In this document: positions 1 through 43,984 of the stretch, in pieces
Numbering within the stretch: position 1 is the stretch's first letter
Layout of the letters: each line of letters opens with the position of its first letter
Source of the DNA: Escherichia phage UAB_Phi78
Direction: 5' to 3' (one strand)
DNA length: 43,984 nt
Sequence record: GU595417
The notes under the pieces: model-generated
What the model was told of the DNA's origin: nothing
What the model saw: the letters and a program-made list of their open reading frames with translations, nothing else
The model's database searches: none
Program-made: the position numbers and the translations under genes

Positions 1-280
1 TAGGCGTGTGTCAGGTCTCTCGGCCTCGGCCTCGCCGGGATGTCCCCATAGGGTGCCTGTGGGCGCTAGGGCGGCCTGAGAAGGCCTGAGAGAGTCGCTT
101 AGTGTGGGCCAAAGGGAGACCGGAGGCCGACCGAGAGCGAGCGAGAGGGACACGCGGAGGACGCTTGACAGCGTGTGCGGGCGTGGGCTATCTGTTCCTT
201 TGCTCCTCACTTCGTTTGCTCCGCTTACGCTACGCTTCACTCACGGCCTTGTGTACCTTAGGGACTTCCTTATCGTGTAC
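1..280. repeat. GC-rich left genome terminus, candidate terminal-repeat region
   Basis: Sharp GC-rich block with internal short direct repeats (cggcctcggcctcgcc; ggcctgaga twice; gagcgagcgagag) and no RBS-supported ORF, unlike the AT-richer remainder. The right end of the window does not repeat this sequence, so the extent of any terminal repeat cannot be set from this window alone. Confidence 0.4.
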
Positions 281-288
281 CTTGGGAC

Positions 289-380
289 AGTCTTAGTAAA
301 TACCTTAGTCACTTCCTTAGTAGCTTCCTTAGTGAGTAGCTTAGTGGCTATCTATTGCTGTCTTAGTGTTACCTTAGTGA
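289..380. repeat. short periodic repeat array (CCTTAGT core, about 12-bp spacing)
   Basis: CTTAGT/CCTTAGT recurs at about 291, 303, 315, 327, 340, 362 and 373, mostly 12 bp apart, with further copies at about 551 and 564. T7-type genomes are known to carry short repeat arrays next to the terminal repeat. Confidence 0.6.
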
Positions 381-520
381 TTGCATAGCTACGCTATAAG
401 ATGCGAATAGGTCGCGGTCGGTAGACCGCTAAAGAAAGAGAAGAATAATAAGATGCAGTCGGAGGAACACCAGAACACAGGCCAACCTATCCTAGCCTTG
501 TATCTATTGCTTTTTCCTTG

Positions 521-536
521 GTCCAACACGTTAGAC
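521..536 (-). repeat. dispersed 16-bp near-palindromic element (GTCTAACGTGTTGGAC family), inverted copy
   Basis: gtccaacacgttagac is the exact reverse complement of the core found at 6253, 6424 and elsewhere. Confidence 0.7.
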
Positions 537-569
537 AACCTATCTTATTCTTAGTGAGGTAACTTAGTG

Positions 570-598
570 TTGACAAGGTAGGTTTAGTGTAATACTAT
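570..598 (+). promoter_or_regulatory. candidate host sigma70 early promoter
   Basis: TTGACA (570-575), 17-bp spacer, TACTAT (593-598), upstream of the first early ORF. Confidence 0.45.
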
Positions 599-726
599 GC
601 ATCACGTAGGCGGTGCTGAGGCACCTAGTAGCCAGCTAGTAAGGCATATGAAGTGACTAGTGTCTACATTGCTCTTTAATAATCTGGTTGTGTCTCGATA
701 GGTCAACTAACAAAAGGTGAACTGTC

Positions 727-1014
727 ATGGCTTTAATTAGTATGAAGAAGTTAAACACGGGAGAGGCTCTTAACCTATTTAACTCCGAGGAGTGGGATCT
801 ATCTAAAGGTGTATATACTTGCCCTTGCTTCAAACGAAATAAGGAAACAGGTGAAGTTTTGCGTTTGCCTGATAAGGTAAAAGTAGATTACTTTATACAT
901 ATGAAAGGTAATGCTTCTCTTAACAGATTGCACATACAAAAGAGCGCAGCTAAATCTATAGCATCTTTGTTGTGTAAACAATTAAAGGATATAAAAGAGA
1001 TACCAAACTATTAA
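727..1014 (+). CDS. hypothetical early protein (95 aa)
   Basis: ORF with RBS-like aaaggtga upstream; first gene after the candidate early promoter. Confidence 0.55.
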   Translation: MALISMKKLNTGEALNLFNSEEWDLSKGVYTCPCFKRNKETGEVLRLPDKVKVDYFIHMKGNASLNRLHIQKSAAKSIASLLCKQLKDIKEIPNY

Positions 1015-1126
1015 AGATATGGTCGGCGCAAGCTGGCCTATCAAGACACAACCTAGCTCTTTAACAATTTGCTTAGTGTAACCTATGTAAGCCGTGGTTA
1101 ATTACTTATTGAATGAGGAATTAACT

Positions 1127-1306
1127 ATGACAAGACTGTACAAAGATGATTCAAGCGGCGCTTATTACACACTTTGCGGGAGGACTTTAATACTTCTCAA
1201 TGGTGCAACAGGTAGACGTCTTATCTCTTATCTTGCTACACATAGAGCATGTATACATAGTGGTTTGCAGCTAGTTGGTAATAACTTTAAGAGGAAGCAA
1301 CTATGA
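1127..1306 (+). CDS. hypothetical early protein (59 aa)
   Basis: In-frame ATG at 1127 preceded by GAGGA RBS; the track ORF 1094..1306 probably starts here. Confidence 0.4.
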   Translation: MTRLYKDDSSGAYYTLCGRTLILLNGATGRRLISYLATHRACIHSGLQLVGNNFKRKQL

Positions 1307-1482
1307 TGACCTTGAACCGTAGAGAAGCTAGCGCAGTCTTTACTATGTTGTGTTGGATGATACGTAACAACGAAATGATGACTGATGATGAGCTAGCGCT
1401 TTACCATCGCTTTCGTAATGAAGGTTGGGATGATACTGTAAACAAGGAACGCAACATACTGAAGGAGCTAATCAATGTTTAA
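1303..1482 (+). CDS. hypothetical early protein (59 aa)
   Basis: ATG overlaps the upstream stop (ATGATG / TGA), with AAGAGGAAG RBS; just under the 60-aa cutoff so absent from the ORF track. Confidence 0.4.
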   Translation: MMTLNRREASAVFTMLCWMIRNNEMMTDDELALYHRFRNEGWDDTVNKERNILKELINV

Positions 1483-1684
1483 ACACACGATATACACGCA
1501 ATGCAGCATCTCCGCAGGTCTTATGAATTGGTGGGGCAAATCTGGGATTAAGTGCTACAATCTGAATGACTCTAGCACTATGTATGAGGTTACTCTCATG
1601 AGAAGATACAACCATGATACGCTGTTATGGGTACTATCTGAATGGGGTATAGACTATGAAGATGTGATTACAGAAGAAATCTAA
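1475..1684 (+). CDS. hypothetical early protein (69 aa)
   Basis: ORF with GAAGGAG RBS, start overlapping the preceding stop. Confidence 0.5.
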   Translation: MFKHTIYTQCSISAGLMNWWGKSGIKCYNLNDSSTMYEVTLMRRYNHDTLLWVLSEWGIDYEDVITEEI

Positions 1685-1692
1685 ATTAGTTG

Positions 1693-1721
1693 TTGACAAC
1701 CACGGCTTACAAGGTTACATT
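1693..1721 (+). promoter_or_regulatory. candidate host sigma70 early promoter
   Basis: TTGACA (1693-1698), 17-bp spacer, TACATT (1716-1721). Confidence 0.4.
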
Positions 1722-1837
1722 AAGCATCAAGAAGTAAAGTTCTTTAACAAATCAGGTGAACTAAGTCGGATAGGTTAACGCATAGGAGGCTTGCGAGTAT
1801 CCTAGAGGGTAACCTAACTAACTAAGAGGATTTAATT

Positions 1838-2194
1838 ATGTCTTACTCTAACATGACTTACGCTAACGTTTATAACCACGCTTACTCCTTGCTGGATGAG
1901 TACATTCGATATGAAGATGTACGCGATTATGACGAAGCAACTGATAAGATTCATGAGGCTGCGGATAATGCGGTTCCCGTCTATTACAAAGATATTTTCT
2001 CAGTAATGGCTAGCGGTGGAATCGATCATGAATTCGAAGATTCAGGCTTAATACCGGACACTAAGGATGTGACACGCATTCTACAAGCTCGCATTTATGA
2101 GCAACTGACTATCGATCTGTATGAAGTGGTAGCAGACTTGCTTAATGAATATCTTGAAGAAGTAGAAGCTGAAGAAGACGAGGAGGAGGAATAA
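1838..2194 (+). CDS. ocr: Ocr-like DNA-mimic anti-restriction protein (T7 gp0.3 homologue)
   Basis: 118-aa strongly acidic protein. The pattern SNMTY...IRY.D.RD...[48 protein letters not shown]...[10 protein letters not shown] plus an acidic tail matches T7 Ocr as I recall it. Good RBS; early-region position. Confidence 0.75.
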
Positions 2195-2314
2195 ATGTTT
2201 GCTGGTAAGCTTTATAACTTCATGTTCTCCGATGGTATCATGCTGAAATGCTCTCTTGCTTTCGCTAAAATGCGAGAGGAGACACTTGGAACTACATATA
2301 CACTAATTATGTGA
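2195..2314 (+). CDS. hypothetical small protein (39 aa)
   Basis: ATG directly after the ocr stop, with GAGGAGGAGGAA upstream; below the track cutoff. Confidence 0.3.
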   Translation: MFAGKLYNFMFSDGIMLKCSLAFAKMREETLGTTYTLIM

Positions 2315-2325
2315 CACTATAAGAG
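2305..2325 (+). promoter_or_regulatory. degenerate SP6-type promoter-like sequence
   Basis: aattatgtgacactataagag shares the GTGACACTATA core with the SP6 consensus but diverges at flanking positions. Confidence 0.3.
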
Positions 2326-2383
2326 GCTTAACAGGTCATCCTTGCGAGGGTGACCGATTAAACCAACTTAAAGAGGTGTAAAC

Positions 2384-2539
2384 ATGAAAACTTTGATTAA
2401 TGTGCTGGCTTGCTTCCTACTTGGTTCTATCATCTTGCTTGCTAGTGCTGGCGTTAAGATTGAATCTCATCATTATGACTTTGGAACTTGCAAACATTTG
2501 ATGGTAGGCGGCGCAATGTGGCATACATGGTATGAGTGA
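2384..2539 (+). CDS. small hydrophobic (membrane or secreted) protein (51 aa)
   Basis: AGAGGTG RBS; N-terminal hydrophobic stretch LACFLLGSIILLASAG. Confidence 0.4.
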   Translation: MKTLINVLACFLLGSIILLASAGVKIESHHYDFGTCKHLMVGGAMWHTWYE

Positions 2540-2601
2540 TTAGCCTATAGCTCATTTAGTGGGCTATGTGATATTCACTTAACTAACTAAGGTAAGCAAT
2601 T

Positions 2602-3477
2602 ATGACTACTGAAAACACTGTTGTATCCGTCCGTGAAGCTGCAACTGCTGAAATCAAGGTACACTTAGATACAATTGGCACCGCCTATCTGAAAGTTGGT
2701 TCCCTCTTGAATGAACTACGCGGTGACTTTGAGAATCAACGTGACTTTCTGTCTTATGTAGAAGCTGAATTCAGCATTAAGAAGGCACAATGCTATAACC
2801 TGATGAACGTAGCGCGTTGCTTTGACGGTGACGAGCGTTTCAAAGGCGTTGCCATGCGTGTCATGCTCGCCCTTATCCCGTTCGCTGATGATGGCGCAAT
2901 CATGGATAAGGCCGCCGGACTTGCCGCTAACGGCGAACTAGACACCAAGGCCGTGAATGCACTTGTATCGCCGTCTAAGCCTGTGAAGGCTGAAGCCAGC
3001 CAATCACAAGCCGAAGACACAAAAGCCGCTGAGAAGGCCGCTCCTGTAGAATCTGAGGCATTACAAAGCGTGCCGCATGAGGTAGCACCGGAAGGCGACG
3101 AATCCGCACCGTGGGAGGATGCGCCAGCGACTACCGAGGCCGCAGCGCCTAAGCTAGATAATGCTGAGAACACCGAGAACGCGGCTATGGCTAGCCTGCT
3201 GGCGCAAATCAAGACGCTGACCGAGCAACTGACCGCAGCAAACGACCGCATCGCAGAACTGACCAGCACACGCGAGACCAAGAAGGCAGCCGCGCCTATG
3301 TTGCCTCAATTCAAATCTAAGTGCTTCTATGCTCGCTTAGGTCTGAGCGCGGAGGAGGCGGAGAAGAAAACAGCAGTTAATAAGGCTAAACGTGAACTTG
3401 TTAAGCTTGGATACGGAGAAGGTCATGAAGCTTGGGATCTGATTCAAGAGGCTGTTACCACACTTACTGAGAAATAA
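2602..3477 (+). CDS. hypothetical early protein (291 aa) with low-complexity Ala/Glu/Lys-rich centre
   Basis: Long ORF with AGGTAAG RBS-like sequence. The antisense ORF 2793..3281 is explained by its biased composition. Confidence 0.65.
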   Translation: MTTENTVVSVREAATAEIKVHLDTIGTAYLKVGSLLNELRGDFENQRDFLSYVEAEFSIKKAQCYNLMNVARCFDGDERFKGVAMRVMLALIPFADDGAIMDKAAGLAANGELDTKAVNALVSPSKPVKAEASQSQAEDTKAAEKAAPVESEALQSVPHEVAPEGDESAPWEDAPATTEAAAPKLDNAENTENAAMASLLAQIKTLTEQLTAANDRIAELTSTRETKKAAAPMLPQFKSKCFYARLGLSAEEAEKKTAVNKAKRELVKLGYGEGHEAWDLIQEAVTTLTEK

Positions 3478-3480
3478 TAG

Positions 3481-3509
3481 TTGACTTATAGAGCGTCATT
3501 AAGTAAGAT
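3481..3509 (+). promoter_or_regulatory. candidate host sigma70 promoter upstream of the RNA polymerase gene
   Basis: TTGACT (3481-3486), 17-bp spacer, TAAGAT (3504-3509), about 40 bp before the RNAP start. Confidence 0.45.
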
Positions 3510-3551
3510 GGCGCTCAATTAAGTTATCTAGCACTTAACGGAGTAAACAAG

Positions 3552-6176
3552 ATGCAAGACTTACACGCTATCCAGCTTCAATTAGAAGAAGAGATGTTTA
3601 ATGGTGGCATTCGTCGGTTCGAAGCAGACCAACAACGCCAGATTGCAGCAGGTAGCGAGAGTGACACGGCATGGAACCGCCGCCTGTTGTCCGAACTTAT
3701 TGCACCTATGGCTGAAGGTATTCAGGCTTATAAAGAGGAGTACGAAGGCAAGAAAGGTCGTGCTCCTCGCGCATTGGCATTCTTACAGTGTGTAGAAAAT
3801 GAAGTTGCAGCATACATCACTATGAAGGTAGTTATGGATATGCTGAATACTGATGTTACTCTTCAGGCTATTGCAATGAGCGTAGCGGAGCGCATCGAAG
3901 ACCAAGTGCGTTTTAGCAAGTTAGAAGGTCACGCCGCTAAATACTTTGAGAAGGTTAAGAAATCACTCAAGGCTAGCCGTACTAAGTCCTATCGTCACGC
4001 GCACAACGTAGCTGTAGTGGCTGAAAAGTCAGTAGCAGAAAAAGACGCTGACTTTGACCGTTGGGAGGCATGGCCCAAAGAGGCTCAATTGCAAATTGGT
4101 ACTACCTTGCTTGAAATCTTAGAGGGCAGCGTATTCTATAACGGTGAACCTGTATTTATGCGTGCTATGCGCACTTATGGCGGCAAGACTATTTACTACT
4201 TACAGACTTCTGAAAGTGTAGGTCAGTGGATTAGCGCGTTCAAAGAGCACGTAGCGCAATTAAGCCCAGCTTATGCTCCTTGCGTAGTCCCTCCTCGTCC
4301 TTGGAAAACCCCATTCAACGGTGGATTCCATACTGAGAAGGTAGCTAGTCGTATTCGCCTTGTAAAAGGCAACCGCGAACATGTGCGCAAGTTAACTCAA
4401 AAGCAGATGCCAAAGGTTTATAAGGCTATCAATGCCCTACAGAATACGCAATGGCAAATCAACAAGGACGTATTAGCAGTTATTGAGGAAGTGATTCGCT
4501 TAGACCTCGGTTATGGTGTGCCGTCCTTCAAGCCCCTGATTGACAAGGAGAACAAGCCAGCTAACCCTGTGCCTGTTGAATTCCAGCACCTGCGCGGTCG
4601 TGAACTGAAAGAAATGCTCTCCCCTGAGCAGTGGCAACAATTTATCAACTGGAAAGGTGAGTGTGCCCGCCTGTATACCGCAGAAACTAAGCGCGGTTCA
4701 AAGTCCGCCGCCGTTGTTCGCATGGTAGGGCAGGCCCGTAAATATAGCACCTTTGAATCCATTTACTTCGTGTACGCAATGGACAGCCGTTCCCGTGTAT
4801 ACGCGCAGTCTAGCACGCTCTCTCCGCAGTCTAACGACTTAGGCAAGGCATTACTCCGCTTTACCGAAGGACGCCCTGTAGACAGCGTAGAGGCGCTTAA
4901 ATGGTTCTGCGTGAATGGCGCTAACCTTTGGGGGTGGGACAAGAAAATTTTTGATGTACGCGTGTCTAACGTGTTGGACGAAGAGTTCCAGGATATGTGC
5001 CGCGACATCGCCGCAGACCCTCTCACGTTCACTCAATGGGCCAAAGCGGACGCGCCTTATGAATTCCTCGCATGGTGCTTTGAGTACGCTCAATACCTTG
5101 ACTTAGTAGAGGAAGGAAGGGCCGACGAGTTCCGCACACACCTGCCAGTACATCAGGACGGTTCCTGCTCCGGTATTCAGCACTATAGCGCTATGCTTCG
5201 CGATGAAGTAGGGGCCAAGGCTGTTAACCTGAAACCGTCCGATACGCCGCAGGATATTTACGGGGCGGTAGCGCAGGTTGTTATCAAGAAGAATGCGCTA
5301 TACATGGATGCAGACGATGCAACTACGTTTACTTCTGGTAGCGTAACACTGTCCGGTGCAGAACTGCGAGCAATGGCTAGCGCATGGGATAGCATTGGTA
5401 TTACCCGCAGCTTAACCAAAAAGCCAGTGATGACCTTGCCTTATGGTTCTACTCGCTTAACTTGCCGTGAATCTGTGATTGACTACATCGTAGACTTAGA
5501 GGAGAAAGAGGCGCAGAAGGCAGTAGCAGAAGGGCGGACGGCAAACAAGGTTCATCCGTTTGAAGACGACCGTCAAGACTACCTGACTCCGGGCGCAGCA
5601 TATAACTACATGACGGCATTAATCTGGCCTTCTATTTCTGAGGTAGTTAAGGCACCAATTGTAGCGATGAAGATGATACGCCAGCTTGCACGCTTTGCAG
5701 CGAAACGCAATGAAGGGCTGATGTACACCCTGCCTACTGGCTTCATCTTAGAACAGAAGATTATGGCAACCGAGATGTTACGTGTGCGTACCTGCCTGAT
5801 GGGTGATATCAAGATGTCGCTTCAGGTTGAAACGGATATAGTAGATGAAGCTGCTATGATGGGCGCAGCAGCACCTAACTTCGTACACGGTCATGATGCA
5901 AGTCACCTTATCCTTACCGTATGTGAATTGGTAGACAAAGGGGTAACTAGTATCGCGGTAATCCACGACTCTTTCGGCACTCATGCCGACAACACTCTCA
6001 CTCTTAGAGTGGCACTTAAAGGGCAGATGGTTGCAATGTATAGTGAAGGCCATGCACTTCAGAAATTACTGGACGAGCACGAAGATCGTTGGATGGTTGA
6101 TACTGGCATCGAAGTGCCTGAGCAAGGGGAGTTTGACCTTAACGAAATCATGGAATCTGAATACGTGTTTGCCTAA
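3552..6176 (+). CDS. single-subunit DNA-directed RNA polymerase (T7/SP6 type)
   Basis: 874 aa; T7-RNAP-like motifs [19 protein letters not shown] and HDSFGTH and a C-terminal ...YVFA end; 874 aa matches the known length of SP6 RNAP. Confidence 0.97.
4964..4979 (+). repeat. 16-bp near-palindromic element embedded in the RNAP coding sequence
   Basis: gtctaacgtgttggac, translated in frame as SNVLD. Confidence 0.7.
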
Positions 6177-6492: not shown

Positions 6493-6903
6493 ATGCGTAA
6501 ATCATTAGCTCAAATGGTAGAGCAAGCAGGTTATACTATACATGCAGACGGTACTATCACAGGTAAGCGCGGAAATATCTTGAAGCCTTGGCTTCAGACT
6601 TCCGGCTATCAGGTTGTGAACATTGTGTTCAAGAAGGGAACAAGAACCACAACACTTGTGCATCGTATTATCGCAAGTAAATACTGCCCATGCTCAGATC
6701 AACTAGCTAATGATGTAAACCACAAGGACGGAGACAAGACCAATAACGTCTCCTCTAATCTGGAATGGATTACACGCAGACAGAACCGCAACCACTACCT
6801 TGGGTTTGAAGATTACATGACACTTACGGCAAACGATGCCCGTAGAAAGAACAATGAGCGTACTATCGCTCGTCGTAAATTACTTAAACAACTTAATAAG
6901 TGA
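6493..6903 (+). CDS. HNH homing endonuclease
   Basis: AAGGAGGT RBS; HNH-family motif VNHKDGDKTNN...NLEWIT; free-standing between the RNAP and primase genes. Confidence 0.8.
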   Translation: MRKSLAQMVEQAGYTIHADGTITGKRGNILKPWLQTSGYQVVNIVFKKGTRTTTLVHRIIASKYCPCSDQLANDVNHKDGDKTNNVSSNLEWITRRQNRNHYLGFEDYMTLTANDARRKNNERTIARRKLLKQLNK

Positions 6904-13184: not shown

Positions 13185-13562
13185 ATGTCTATGGTAACTA
13201 TCCTTGTAGCAATGTCTCAGTACCTGCGTAGCCTGTCTGTTCGTATGAAGAACAAGGCTATCAAGGCAATTAAAGATCGCATCGCTGTAGTTGAGGCGGA
13301 GCAGGTAGAGTTAGAAGAGAGCCGAAGCAATCGCATGGTTGATTGCCACAAGCGATACTATGCATCTTATGAAGACCTTCGTGCTCGATACGTCAAAGAG
13401 GTGGCTGAGTTACTGGAGCGTCATGAGACGGAGCAGCGTAATCTGAAGGCAGACTTTGAAGAGAACAAGCGCACTATTGCACTTACCTCTCAGGCTGCAT
13501 CTAATGAACTGAAGCGTGAACTTGTAATGCTTAGTTCTGAACTGGATAACCTAACCAAGTAA
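13185..13562 (+). CDS. hypothetical protein (125 aa), coiled-coil-like
   Basis: TAGGAGAATAA RBS; charged heptad-like sequence. Confidence 0.6.
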   Translation: MSMVTILVAMSQYLRSLSVRMKNKAIKAIKDRIAVVEAEQVELEESRSNRMVDCHKRYYASYEDLRARYVKEVAELLERHETEQRNLKADFEENKRTIALTSQAASNELKRELVMLSSELDNLTK

Positions 13563-14792: not shown

Positions 14793-15161
14793 ATGTTCAC
14801 TATCGAAACTATCGTAAACCGTGTTGTTAAAGGCGCTACCCTGGTATCCGTTGAGTCTTTCATTATCGTCGATGAAGCTGGCTCGCTGGTAGCTGGTACT
14901 AAGGCTTATGATACCCGTGAAGAAGCTCAGGCTAAGATTGACAGCATGGGTAACTTTGCTGCTGGTCTGGAGTTCGCACGTGCTTGCTTCCCGGAGCAGG
15001 CTGACAAAGCTCAGATTGGTAAGGCTAACATCGTAGCTGAATATCTGGACTGGATTGAAGCAGGTAAGCCTGTGAAAGAAGCTAAGTCTGCTGAAGTTGT
15101 TGAAGCTGCTGCCGAAGAAGCTCCGGTTGCTGCTCAGGTGAGCGAAGAAGAAGAGTTCTAA
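14793..15161 (+). CDS. hypothetical protein with acidic C-terminal tail (122 aa)
   Basis: GAAGGAGAA RBS; ends ...SEEEEF; followed directly by a strong terminator. Confidence 0.65.
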   Translation: MFTIETIVNRVVKGATLVSVESFIIVDEAGSLVAGTKAYDTREEAQAKIDSMGNFAAGLEFARACFPEQADKAQIGKANIVAEYLDWIEAGKPVKEAKSAEVVEAAAEEAPVAAQVSEEEEF

Positions 15162-17971: not shown

Positions 17972-18421
17972 ATGGCTAAATTTAAAGTAGGTGATGAAGT
18001 TAAGCGTAAAGAAGATGACTATAGTGAAGCATGGCTTGATGGATGTAGAGAGGGTAGATTCAGTCCAAACGATGTCATGGTTGTGGAAAAGGTATCAGTA
18101 TCTGGTTCTTTGATTACACTCCGAGGTGTGACTGGGGCTTGGGTTGCTGAGAGTTTTGAACTGTTTCATAAGAAGGAAGACTCTTGTGACATGGTAATGA
18201 ACCCTAAACACTATGAATTCTTCGAAGGAGTAGAGGCAATCACAATCATTGCCCGTAGCATGACCGAGAAGCAATTCGCTGGTTACTGTATGGGTAACGC
18301 TTTGAAGTATCGTCTACGTGCAGGTAAGAAGCTCAATACTGAGGAAGATCTGAAGAAAGCAGACTACTACAAAGACCTGTTCCAGAAGCATCGCCATGAA
18401 TGTATCGATGAGGATCTCTAA
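17972..18421 (+). CDS. hypothetical protein (149 aa)
   Basis: ATG 17972 with GGAGGAA RBS; the track ORF starts further upstream at 17909. Confidence 0.55.
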   Translation: MAKFKVGDEVKRKEDDYSEAWLDGCREGRFSPNDVMVVEKVSVSGSLITLRGVTGAWVAESFELFHKKEDSCDMVMNPKHYEFFEGVEAITIIARSMTEKQFAGYCMGNALKYRLRAGKKLNTEEDLKKADYYKDLFQKHRHECIDEDL

Positions 18422-43816: not shown

Positions 43817-43869
43817 TGTAACCAAAGGGCTGGCCTAGGTTGGCCCTTAGTGTAATCAAAGGAGATAAC

Positions 43870-43947
43870 ATGTATATTCCAATGGAAGCAGTAGTAGGTA
43901 TCGCTTGTTTGCTAGTAGGGTTTGTCATAGGTTTGATAGCACAATAA
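43870..43947 (+). CDS. small hydrophobic peptide (25 aa)
   Basis: AAAGGAGATAACATG; MYIPMEAVVGIACLLVGFVIGLIAQ; below the track cutoff. Confidence 0.3.
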   Translation: MYIPMEAVVGIACLLVGFVIGLIAQ

Positions 43948-43984
43948 TGGTGGTCACAAAGTAGCCAAAGTCAAAATTTTGATA

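Follow-up and report, generated by a model that had tools for sequence, protein, structure and literature searches.

An Ocr-like DNA-mimic anti-restriction gene in the early region of Salmonella phage UAB_Phi78

The gene at 1838-2194 of phage UAB_Phi78 encodes a 118-aa protein of the Ocr family, which we assign, with a probability of about 0.93, as the orthologue of T7 gp0.3 and SP6 gp5, that is, as an early acidic DNA mimic that would block type I restriction-modification (R-M) systems and BREX. Homology, charge, predicted fold, contact-residue conservation and early genomic position all speak for this assignment. The analysis covered the whole deposited stretch of 43,984 nucleotides, referred to below as the window. 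UAB_Phi78 is a Salmonella phage and an SP6-like Zindervirus; its early region is 97.3% identical to that of Salmonella phage vB_SenAt-pSL2 (hereafter pSL2; species Zindervirus UAB78) and 87.5% identical to that of SP6, and its late half is 98.5% identical to that of pSL2.

The finding is correct but already known, since RefSeq already gives this gene a name and the genome paper of the same phage discusses its product. An exact-sequence match identifies the product as YP_007500981.1 / ADW95210.1, with the RefSeq name 'ocr-like anti-restriction'. Bardina et al. 2016 (PMC4837284) reported 75% identity of this protein to SP6 Gp5, a putative anti-restriction protein, and the same paper refers to the suggestion of Scholl et al. 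2004 that Gp5 permits growth in Salmonella with or without type I systems. As a discovery, the gene adds little; the architecture of its leader and of the inverted repeats around it is the sole item that may repay further work.

The ocr gene and its product

The gene and its translation signal are as follows:

1838..2194, + strand: ocr gene (118-aa Ocr-family protein), ATG start, TAA stop, uninterrupted
1824-1830, + strand: ribosome-binding site AAGAGGA, 7 nt 5' of the ocr ATG, read from the sequence

Both the coordinates and the 118-aa length given in the first-pass annotation are exact. Units of the form GAGGA-N-ATG (family D1) repeat ahead of the neighbouring early genes.

When the protein was searched against all PDB sequences with phmmer, the sole match was T7 Ocr (1s7z_A, E=8.1e-49), aligned without gaps from residue 1 to 117 in both proteins, and the global identity to T7 Ocr (gp0.3) is 73.7% (87/118). 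The near full-length match to T7 Ocr claimed at first pass is thereby confirmed, and the pairwise similarity is significant, which removes the objection that the two proteins might not be alike. A single Pfam family was matched at E<=0.01, PF08684 'DNA mimic ocr', with 173.2 bits (gathering cut-off, 25) and coverage of profile positions 2-101 of 101. In PHROGs the protein matched phrog_2568, 'ocr-like anti-restriction' (E=2.8e-51). The purely mechanical nature of ORF lists is the sole point in favour of a chance open frame or a decayed pseudogene, and we give that reading no credence: the frame is full length and uninterrupted, has a ribosome-binding site and is intact in 570 phage records, and these records together with the PDB match and the Pfam score rule it out.

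The AlphaFold2 model, built from a 14-member alignment, has a pLDDT of 86.6 and a pTM of 0.79. It is all-alpha, with four predicted helices (8-25, 31-45, 50-58 and 78-117), of which the C-terminal one is long. A Foldseek search of this model against the PDB gave eight significant matches, all of them T7 Ocr chains (TM 0.80-0.93, rmsd 1.4-2.0 A, E 1e-9 to 1e-10), and nothing beyond Ocr chains below E=1.9, the value of the next match. Structure prediction thus agrees with the first-pass assignment, as the predicted fold resembles Ocr chains alone in the PDB. The matched chains are either free or bound to E. coli BrxX, Salmonella PglX, AriA of PARIS, RNA polymerase or a type I methyltransferase.

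The protein contains 32 Asp+Glu against seven Lys+Arg, which gives a net charge of -25 and a computed pI of ~3.7. For comparison, T7 Ocr has 34 acidic residues against six Lys/Arg (net -28), and the net charge among the 14 aligned homologues ranges from -22 to -34. The acidic and aromatic residues, whose conservation had also been noted at first pass, are indeed largely kept, at 28/34 acidic and 11/12 aromatic positions of T7 Ocr.

Conservation of functionally mapped residues

Residues of Ocr that form salt bridges with Salmonella PglX were mapped by Went et al. 2024 (PMC11341690) as D35, D42, D62, D76, R79 and E109. All six are identical in the UAB_Phi78 protein, including D42 and R79, two PglX-contacting residues of T7 Ocr that SP6 Gp5 lacks. 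With respect to EcoKI, Roberts et al. 2012 (PMC3439906) found that the charge block of aa59-91, and D73 especially, is needed, and that mutating or deleting the acidic residues of aa12-35, of aa92-99 and of the C-terminal tail costs little or no anti-restriction activity. The block aa59-91 of UAB_Phi78 is identical to that of T7 at 29 of its 33 positions and keeps D73; seven of its eight acidic residues are retained (D62, E64, E66, D67, D73, D76 and E87), with E59 replaced by Gly. This E59G change, at the edge of the crucial block, is private to UAB_Phi78; in the alignment an acidic residue (D or E) occupies this position in 12 of the 13 other homologues.

Counted over the whole protein, six acidic positions of T7 are lost (D12, E16, E59, D96, E98 and E110), four acidic positions are gained, and W94 is replaced by Tyr. 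Five of the losses (D12, E16, D96, E98 and E110) fall in segments that are dispensable in T7 Ocr according to PMC3439906. In the 14-sequence alignment F53, V55 and A57 are invariant, and M56 is nearly so.

We take F53, A57 and their neighbours to be part of the hydrophobic dimer interface of T7 Ocr. Judged by alignment, the UAB_Phi78 allele retains all residues whose functional importance has been mapped to date; this supports carrying the results obtained with T7 and SP6 over to this allele.

The same evidence bears on another possible main role, in which the protein would bind RNA polymerase as a DNA mimic and shut off host transcription, with anti-restriction as a secondary activity. A structure of T7 Ocr with bacterial RNA polymerase is available (PDB 6r9b), and the UAB_Phi78 protein has the same fold and charge. 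However, the Ocr family is best documented for relieving type I restriction and BREX, the residues conserved here are those of the PglX contacts and the EcoKI charge block, and binding of RNA polymerase and anti-restriction are not mutually exclusive. We therefore consider it very unlikely that transcription shut-off is the main job, and retain anti-restriction as the primary function.

Early-region context, candidate promoters and hairpins

The ocr gene lies within the first 5% of the 43,984-bp genome and precedes the phage RNA polymerase gene (3552-6176), in keeping with the early-region placement proposed at first pass. The gene order is the same as in SP6, BP12B and pSL2, whose equivalents carry an Ocr annotation. 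In T7-type phages the leading end of the genome enters the cell first. The features of this region that surround ocr are:

570..598, + strand: candidate leftmost sigma-70-like early promoter TTGACA-17-TACTAT, 10/12 consensus match
1693..1721, + strand: candidate sigma-70-like promoter TTGACA-17-TACATT, 10/12 consensus match, 117 nt upstream of the ocr ATG
1764..1823, + strand: irregular ~60-nt hairpin in the ocr 5' leader, between promoter and ribosome-binding site, z=-2.1
2195..2314, + strand: 39-aa ORF (orf2195), ATG abutting the ocr stop (TAA-ATG), phrog_11746, a family of unknown function
2317..2373, + strand: hairpin closing the ocr-orf2195 unit, MFE -20.4 kcal/mol, z=-4.44, equalled by 0/200 shuffles
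2529-2584: irregular hairpin ahead of orf2602, z=-2.2
3478-3530: irregular hairpin ahead of the RNA polymerase gene, z=-5.1

Both promoters are candidates identified by consensus match. For the one at 1693-1721, comparison of ten diverged SP6-like phages showed an invariant -10 element and the -35 element TTGACA in nine of the ten, SP6 having TTGACT. A terminator scan detected no intrinsic terminator in 1-3600 and thus none between the 570-598 promoter and ocr.

The leader hairpin at 1764-1823 has an architecture of lower stem, internal loop and upper stem that folds in all eight SP6-like phages compared (8/8). Its z-score lies between -4.9 and -6.6 in six of them, and is -3.3 in Kenya-K30 and -2.1 in UAB_Phi78. 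The sequence of the upper stem varies between clades with its pairing kept. The informative form of this analysis is the trimmed hairpin compared across phages, with each leader folded singly; the whole ocr leader folds no better than shuffled sequences (1722-1845, z=-1.2; 1690-1845, z=-0.15), and a plain MAFFT alignment misaligned the variable upper stem of the leaders, so that RNAalifold yielded only a weak consensus (-2.7 kcal/mol).

By analogy with T7, the early-region hairpins are putative RNase III processing sites of the T7 type, and the one at 2317-2373 may instead mark an mRNA 3' end. On the T7 map of Dunn and Studier, early RNase III sites reportedly bound the 0.3 to 0.4 message. The leader hairpin of UAB_Phi78 would then be the analogue of R0.3 of T7, and putative processing would yield a discrete mRNA carrying ocr and the 39-aa ORF. 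An Rfam scan of the whole window at gathering thresholds returned no families, and nothing relevant emerged when the literature was searched for RNase III sites of SP6 and K1-5.

At the position of orf2195, an ORF is also annotated in SP6 (gene 53), BP12B, K30, Koku, K1E (gp4) and VEc3, following ocr in each. As a homologue of gp0.4, which holds the equivalent position in T7, orf2195 was rejected at the sensitivity of BLASTP, which produced no alignment even at E<=100.

Annotation of the same region probably needs correction in some relatives. The gene at the ocr position of Salmonella phage PST_H2 (2262-2612) is labelled 'protein kinase', and the ocr start of Klebsiella phage K44PH129C1 (1513) is seemingly placed at an upstream ATG within the region of the ribosome-binding site. 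The Kenya-K30 homologue of orf2602 (2527-3408) is labelled 'prolipoprotein diacylglyceryl transferase'; orf2602 of UAB_Phi78 has no Pfam match, and its PHROG has no assigned function. All three are likely annotation slips.

Long-range inverted repeats and possible early-gene cassettes

Two families of inverted repeats were identified upstream of ocr:

1070..1099, + strand: 5' arm of a 30-bp long-range inverted repeat, pairing with 1698-1726
1698..1726, + strand: 3' arm of the same repeat, overlapping the spacer and -10 element of the 1693-1721 promoter
686-708 / 1031-1053: second inverted-repeat family, bracketing orf727 (727-1014)

The arms of the first repeat enclose three small early ORFs (1127-1684). 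The pair occurs in every one of the 12 SP6-like phages compared, including Klebsiella phages that are only ~75% identical overall. Over ten distinct sequences, 99.3% of 292 cells are paired, compared with 26-37% in slid controls. Two pairs have changed on both sides, one from A:U to U:A in three E. coli phages and the other from U:A to A:U in SP6, and all five one-sided changes (5/5) stay G.U-compatible in the + sense. The observed pairing or covariation score was attained by 2/500 shuffles, a control that is lenient with closely related sequences.

The second family encloses different genes in different phages. The orf727 that it brackets here is found only in UAB_Phi78 and pSL2 and is absent from SP6, where the arms enclose another gene; in K1E and VEc3 they lie directly upstream of ocr. 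Each 3' arm is followed by a AGCTCTTTAACAA motif, copies of which occur at 670, 1055 and 1738. Together, the second repeat family and the AGCTCTTTAACAA motif suggest exchangeable early-gene cassettes.

The inverted repeats could be long-range RNase III stems, cassette-exchange boundaries or the outcome of concerted evolution of a duplicated promoter fragment. More specifically, the helix formed by 1070-1099 and 1698-1726 might act as an rRNA-style RNase III stem, whose cleavage would release the upstream cassette and define where the ocr mRNA begins, or might serve as a cassette-exchange boundary; we hold this proposal as tentative and, on balance, doubtful. In the literature searched we found no description of a long-range inverted-repeat architecture for SP6-like phages.

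Allelic variation of ocr and mosaicism in the genome

The ocr gene is a local hotspot of divergence, with 93-94% nucleotide identity to four close relatives. Against pSL2 the identity is 93.4%, compared with 99.4-100% for the flanking genes, and the difference amounts to ~23 nucleotide changes and six amino-acid changes, mostly synonymous at the nucleotide level. The central segment follows the pattern of Kenya-K30 and not that of pSL2. In addition, UAB_Phi78 has a private insertion of 6 nt (TCTTAC), or two codons, right after the ocr ATG.

This divergence, with E59G, the six lost acidic positions and a mosaic centre that switches between pSL2-like and Kenya-K30-like patterns, could be taken as the mark of an allele that is shifted in specificity or weakened, either evading an Ocr-sensing system such as PARIS, whose AriA binds Ocr directly (PDB 8v45), or having lost part of its inhibitory range. 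We regard such an allele as extremely unlikely, since changes that are mostly synonymous are better explained by a diverged allele that was imported and is under purifying selection than by adaptation, since the residues with a mapped function are retained, and since T7 Ocr tolerates far heavier removal of charge (PMC3439906). The predominance of synonymous changes and the Kenya-K30-like centre point instead to recombinational mosaicism among ocr alleles.

Mosaic patches relative to pSL2 occur elsewhere as well. They include a nucleotide kinase (gp1.7-like) with 62% protein identity and two more proteins, of unknown or 'moron' function, that are 87% and 92% identical. These patches lie at 17981-18418, 14793-15158 and 13185-13559, and the remaining genome is 97-100% identical to pSL2.

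With regard to the genome ends, no direct terminal repeat was detected in the window (ends 1-180 and 43865-43984). The genome was reported as 44,110 bp including terminal repeats of 179 bp (PMC4837284), and the deposited record therefore holds only one copy of the repeat. The last 120 nt do not align with pSL2, which has ~260 nt of other sequence there; the final 30 nt are nearly the same in both records.

Target sites and the scan for other anti-defence genes

In order to evaluate the genome as a target of the systems that Ocr would inhibit, the recognition sites were counted over the whole genome. GATCAG, the Salmonella BREX motif (PMC11341690), occurs at five sites compared with 23 expected. 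This shortage is fully explained by a general depletion of GATC, which is ~2.7-fold (52 sites versus 141.6 +/- 11.5 expected). For type I systems we used REBASE recognition sequences, and counted five EcoKI sites versus 6.1 expected, nine StySPI-type AACN6GTRC sites versus 11.0 expected and two GAGN6RTAYG sites versus 5.2 expected. Type I sites are thus at roughly chance frequency, with no avoidance. As sites are present and those of type I systems are not avoided, the genome is a potential target, which fits reliance on an inhibitor.

The scan for other anti-defence genes combined two sources: the gene set of pSL2 was mapped onto the window, and 29 other proteins, namely the unannotated ones and the phosphoesterase, were compared with PHROGs. 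Among these 29 proteins no family annotated as anti-defence was matched in PHROGs, and specifically no RecBCD inhibitor, dGTPase inhibitor, SAM lyase or gp0.7-type kinase. The named matches were an HNH endonuclease, an acetyltransferase, a metallo-phosphoesterase, an endolysin or peptidase and two 'moron' families, and most matches were to families without known function. The first-pass description of ocr as the only recognisable anti-defence gene therefore stands on the PHROGs scan and the pSL2 annotation, and it holds solely in the sense of 'recognisable' and not as absence, because many of the scanned proteins have no known function.

The HNH endonuclease match concerns a 136-aa protein at 6493-6900 that is 'hypothetical' in pSL2 (phrog_959, E=1e-32). 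Its gene sits between those of the RNA polymerase and the primase/helicase, and it is probably a homing endonuclease.

Proposed mode of action

From the host-type promoters and the position ahead of the phage RNA polymerase gene, immediate transcription by the host enzyme is expected, and ocr would be promptly transcribed by host RNA polymerase after infection. By homology, the small, highly acidic, all-helical product would dimerise, and the carboxylate pattern and bent shape of the dimer would mimic ~24 bp of B-form DNA. Once the leading end has been transcribed, the mimic would sit where type I R-M enzymes and the BREX protein PglX bind DNA, and the blocked enzymes would not act on the unmodified phage genome. 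Expression timing, dimerisation, mimicry and targets are all predicted from homologues in this scheme.

Type I R-M and BREX are likewise proposed as targets by analogy, from work on homologues rather than on the UAB_Phi78 protein. Among the PDB matches are structures of T7 Ocr bound to EcoKI-type methyltransferases and to BrxX/PglX. SP6 Gp5, which is 76.5% identical to the UAB_Phi78 protein, gave full inhibition of Salmonella BREX when supplied from a plasmid (PMC11341690). According to Went et al. (PMC11341690), Salmonella PARIS is triggered by neither T7 Ocr nor SP6 Gp5.

The practical value of the finding derives from the use of UAB_Phi78 as a Salmonella biocontrol and therapy phage. With an intact Ocr, the type I R-M and BREX systems of target strains are predicted not to limit its host range; a system that senses Ocr, e.g. 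PARIS, could still do so.

Comparison with known systems

ArdA-type proteins of plasmids and transposons are likewise acidic dimeric DNA mimics that act against type I R-M. Two papers, PMC2731889 and PMC3969726, reportedly deal with how ArdA compares with Ocr. ArdA-type proteins form a different family, and the UAB_Phi78 protein matches solely Ocr in Pfam and in the PDB sequence and fold searches. In a related phage, the same early slot is occupied by T3 gp0.3, a SAM lyase that reportedly also counters type I R-M and BREX. T3 gp0.3 destroys S-adenosylmethionine enzymatically and is unrelated in sequence to Ocr. Unlike T3 gp0.3, the UAB_Phi78 protein has family matches to Ocr alone (Pfam and PHROGs).

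Its nearest known counterparts include T7 gp0.3 Ocr. The T7 and UAB_Phi78 proteins agree in length to within one residue, in the predicted four-helix fold and in extreme negative charge, and their genes are both early, behind host promoters and ahead of the RNA polymerase gene, with a small ORF directly after. The arrangements also differ. In T7, 0.3 is the first gene after promoters A1-A3, whereas four small ORFs precede ocr in UAB_Phi78; and, unlike T7 0.3, the UAB_Phi78 gene has a promoter-like site of its own 117 nt upstream. SP6 Gp5 (NP_853565 / AAP48744), annotated as 'ocr-like anti-restriction protein' in the type phage of the genus, is the positional orthologue, with the same neighbours on both sides. 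At 76.5% amino-acid and 72% nucleotide identity it is no closer to the UAB_Phi78 protein than T7 Ocr is, whereas the RNA polymerase genes of UAB_Phi78 and SP6 are 92% identical.
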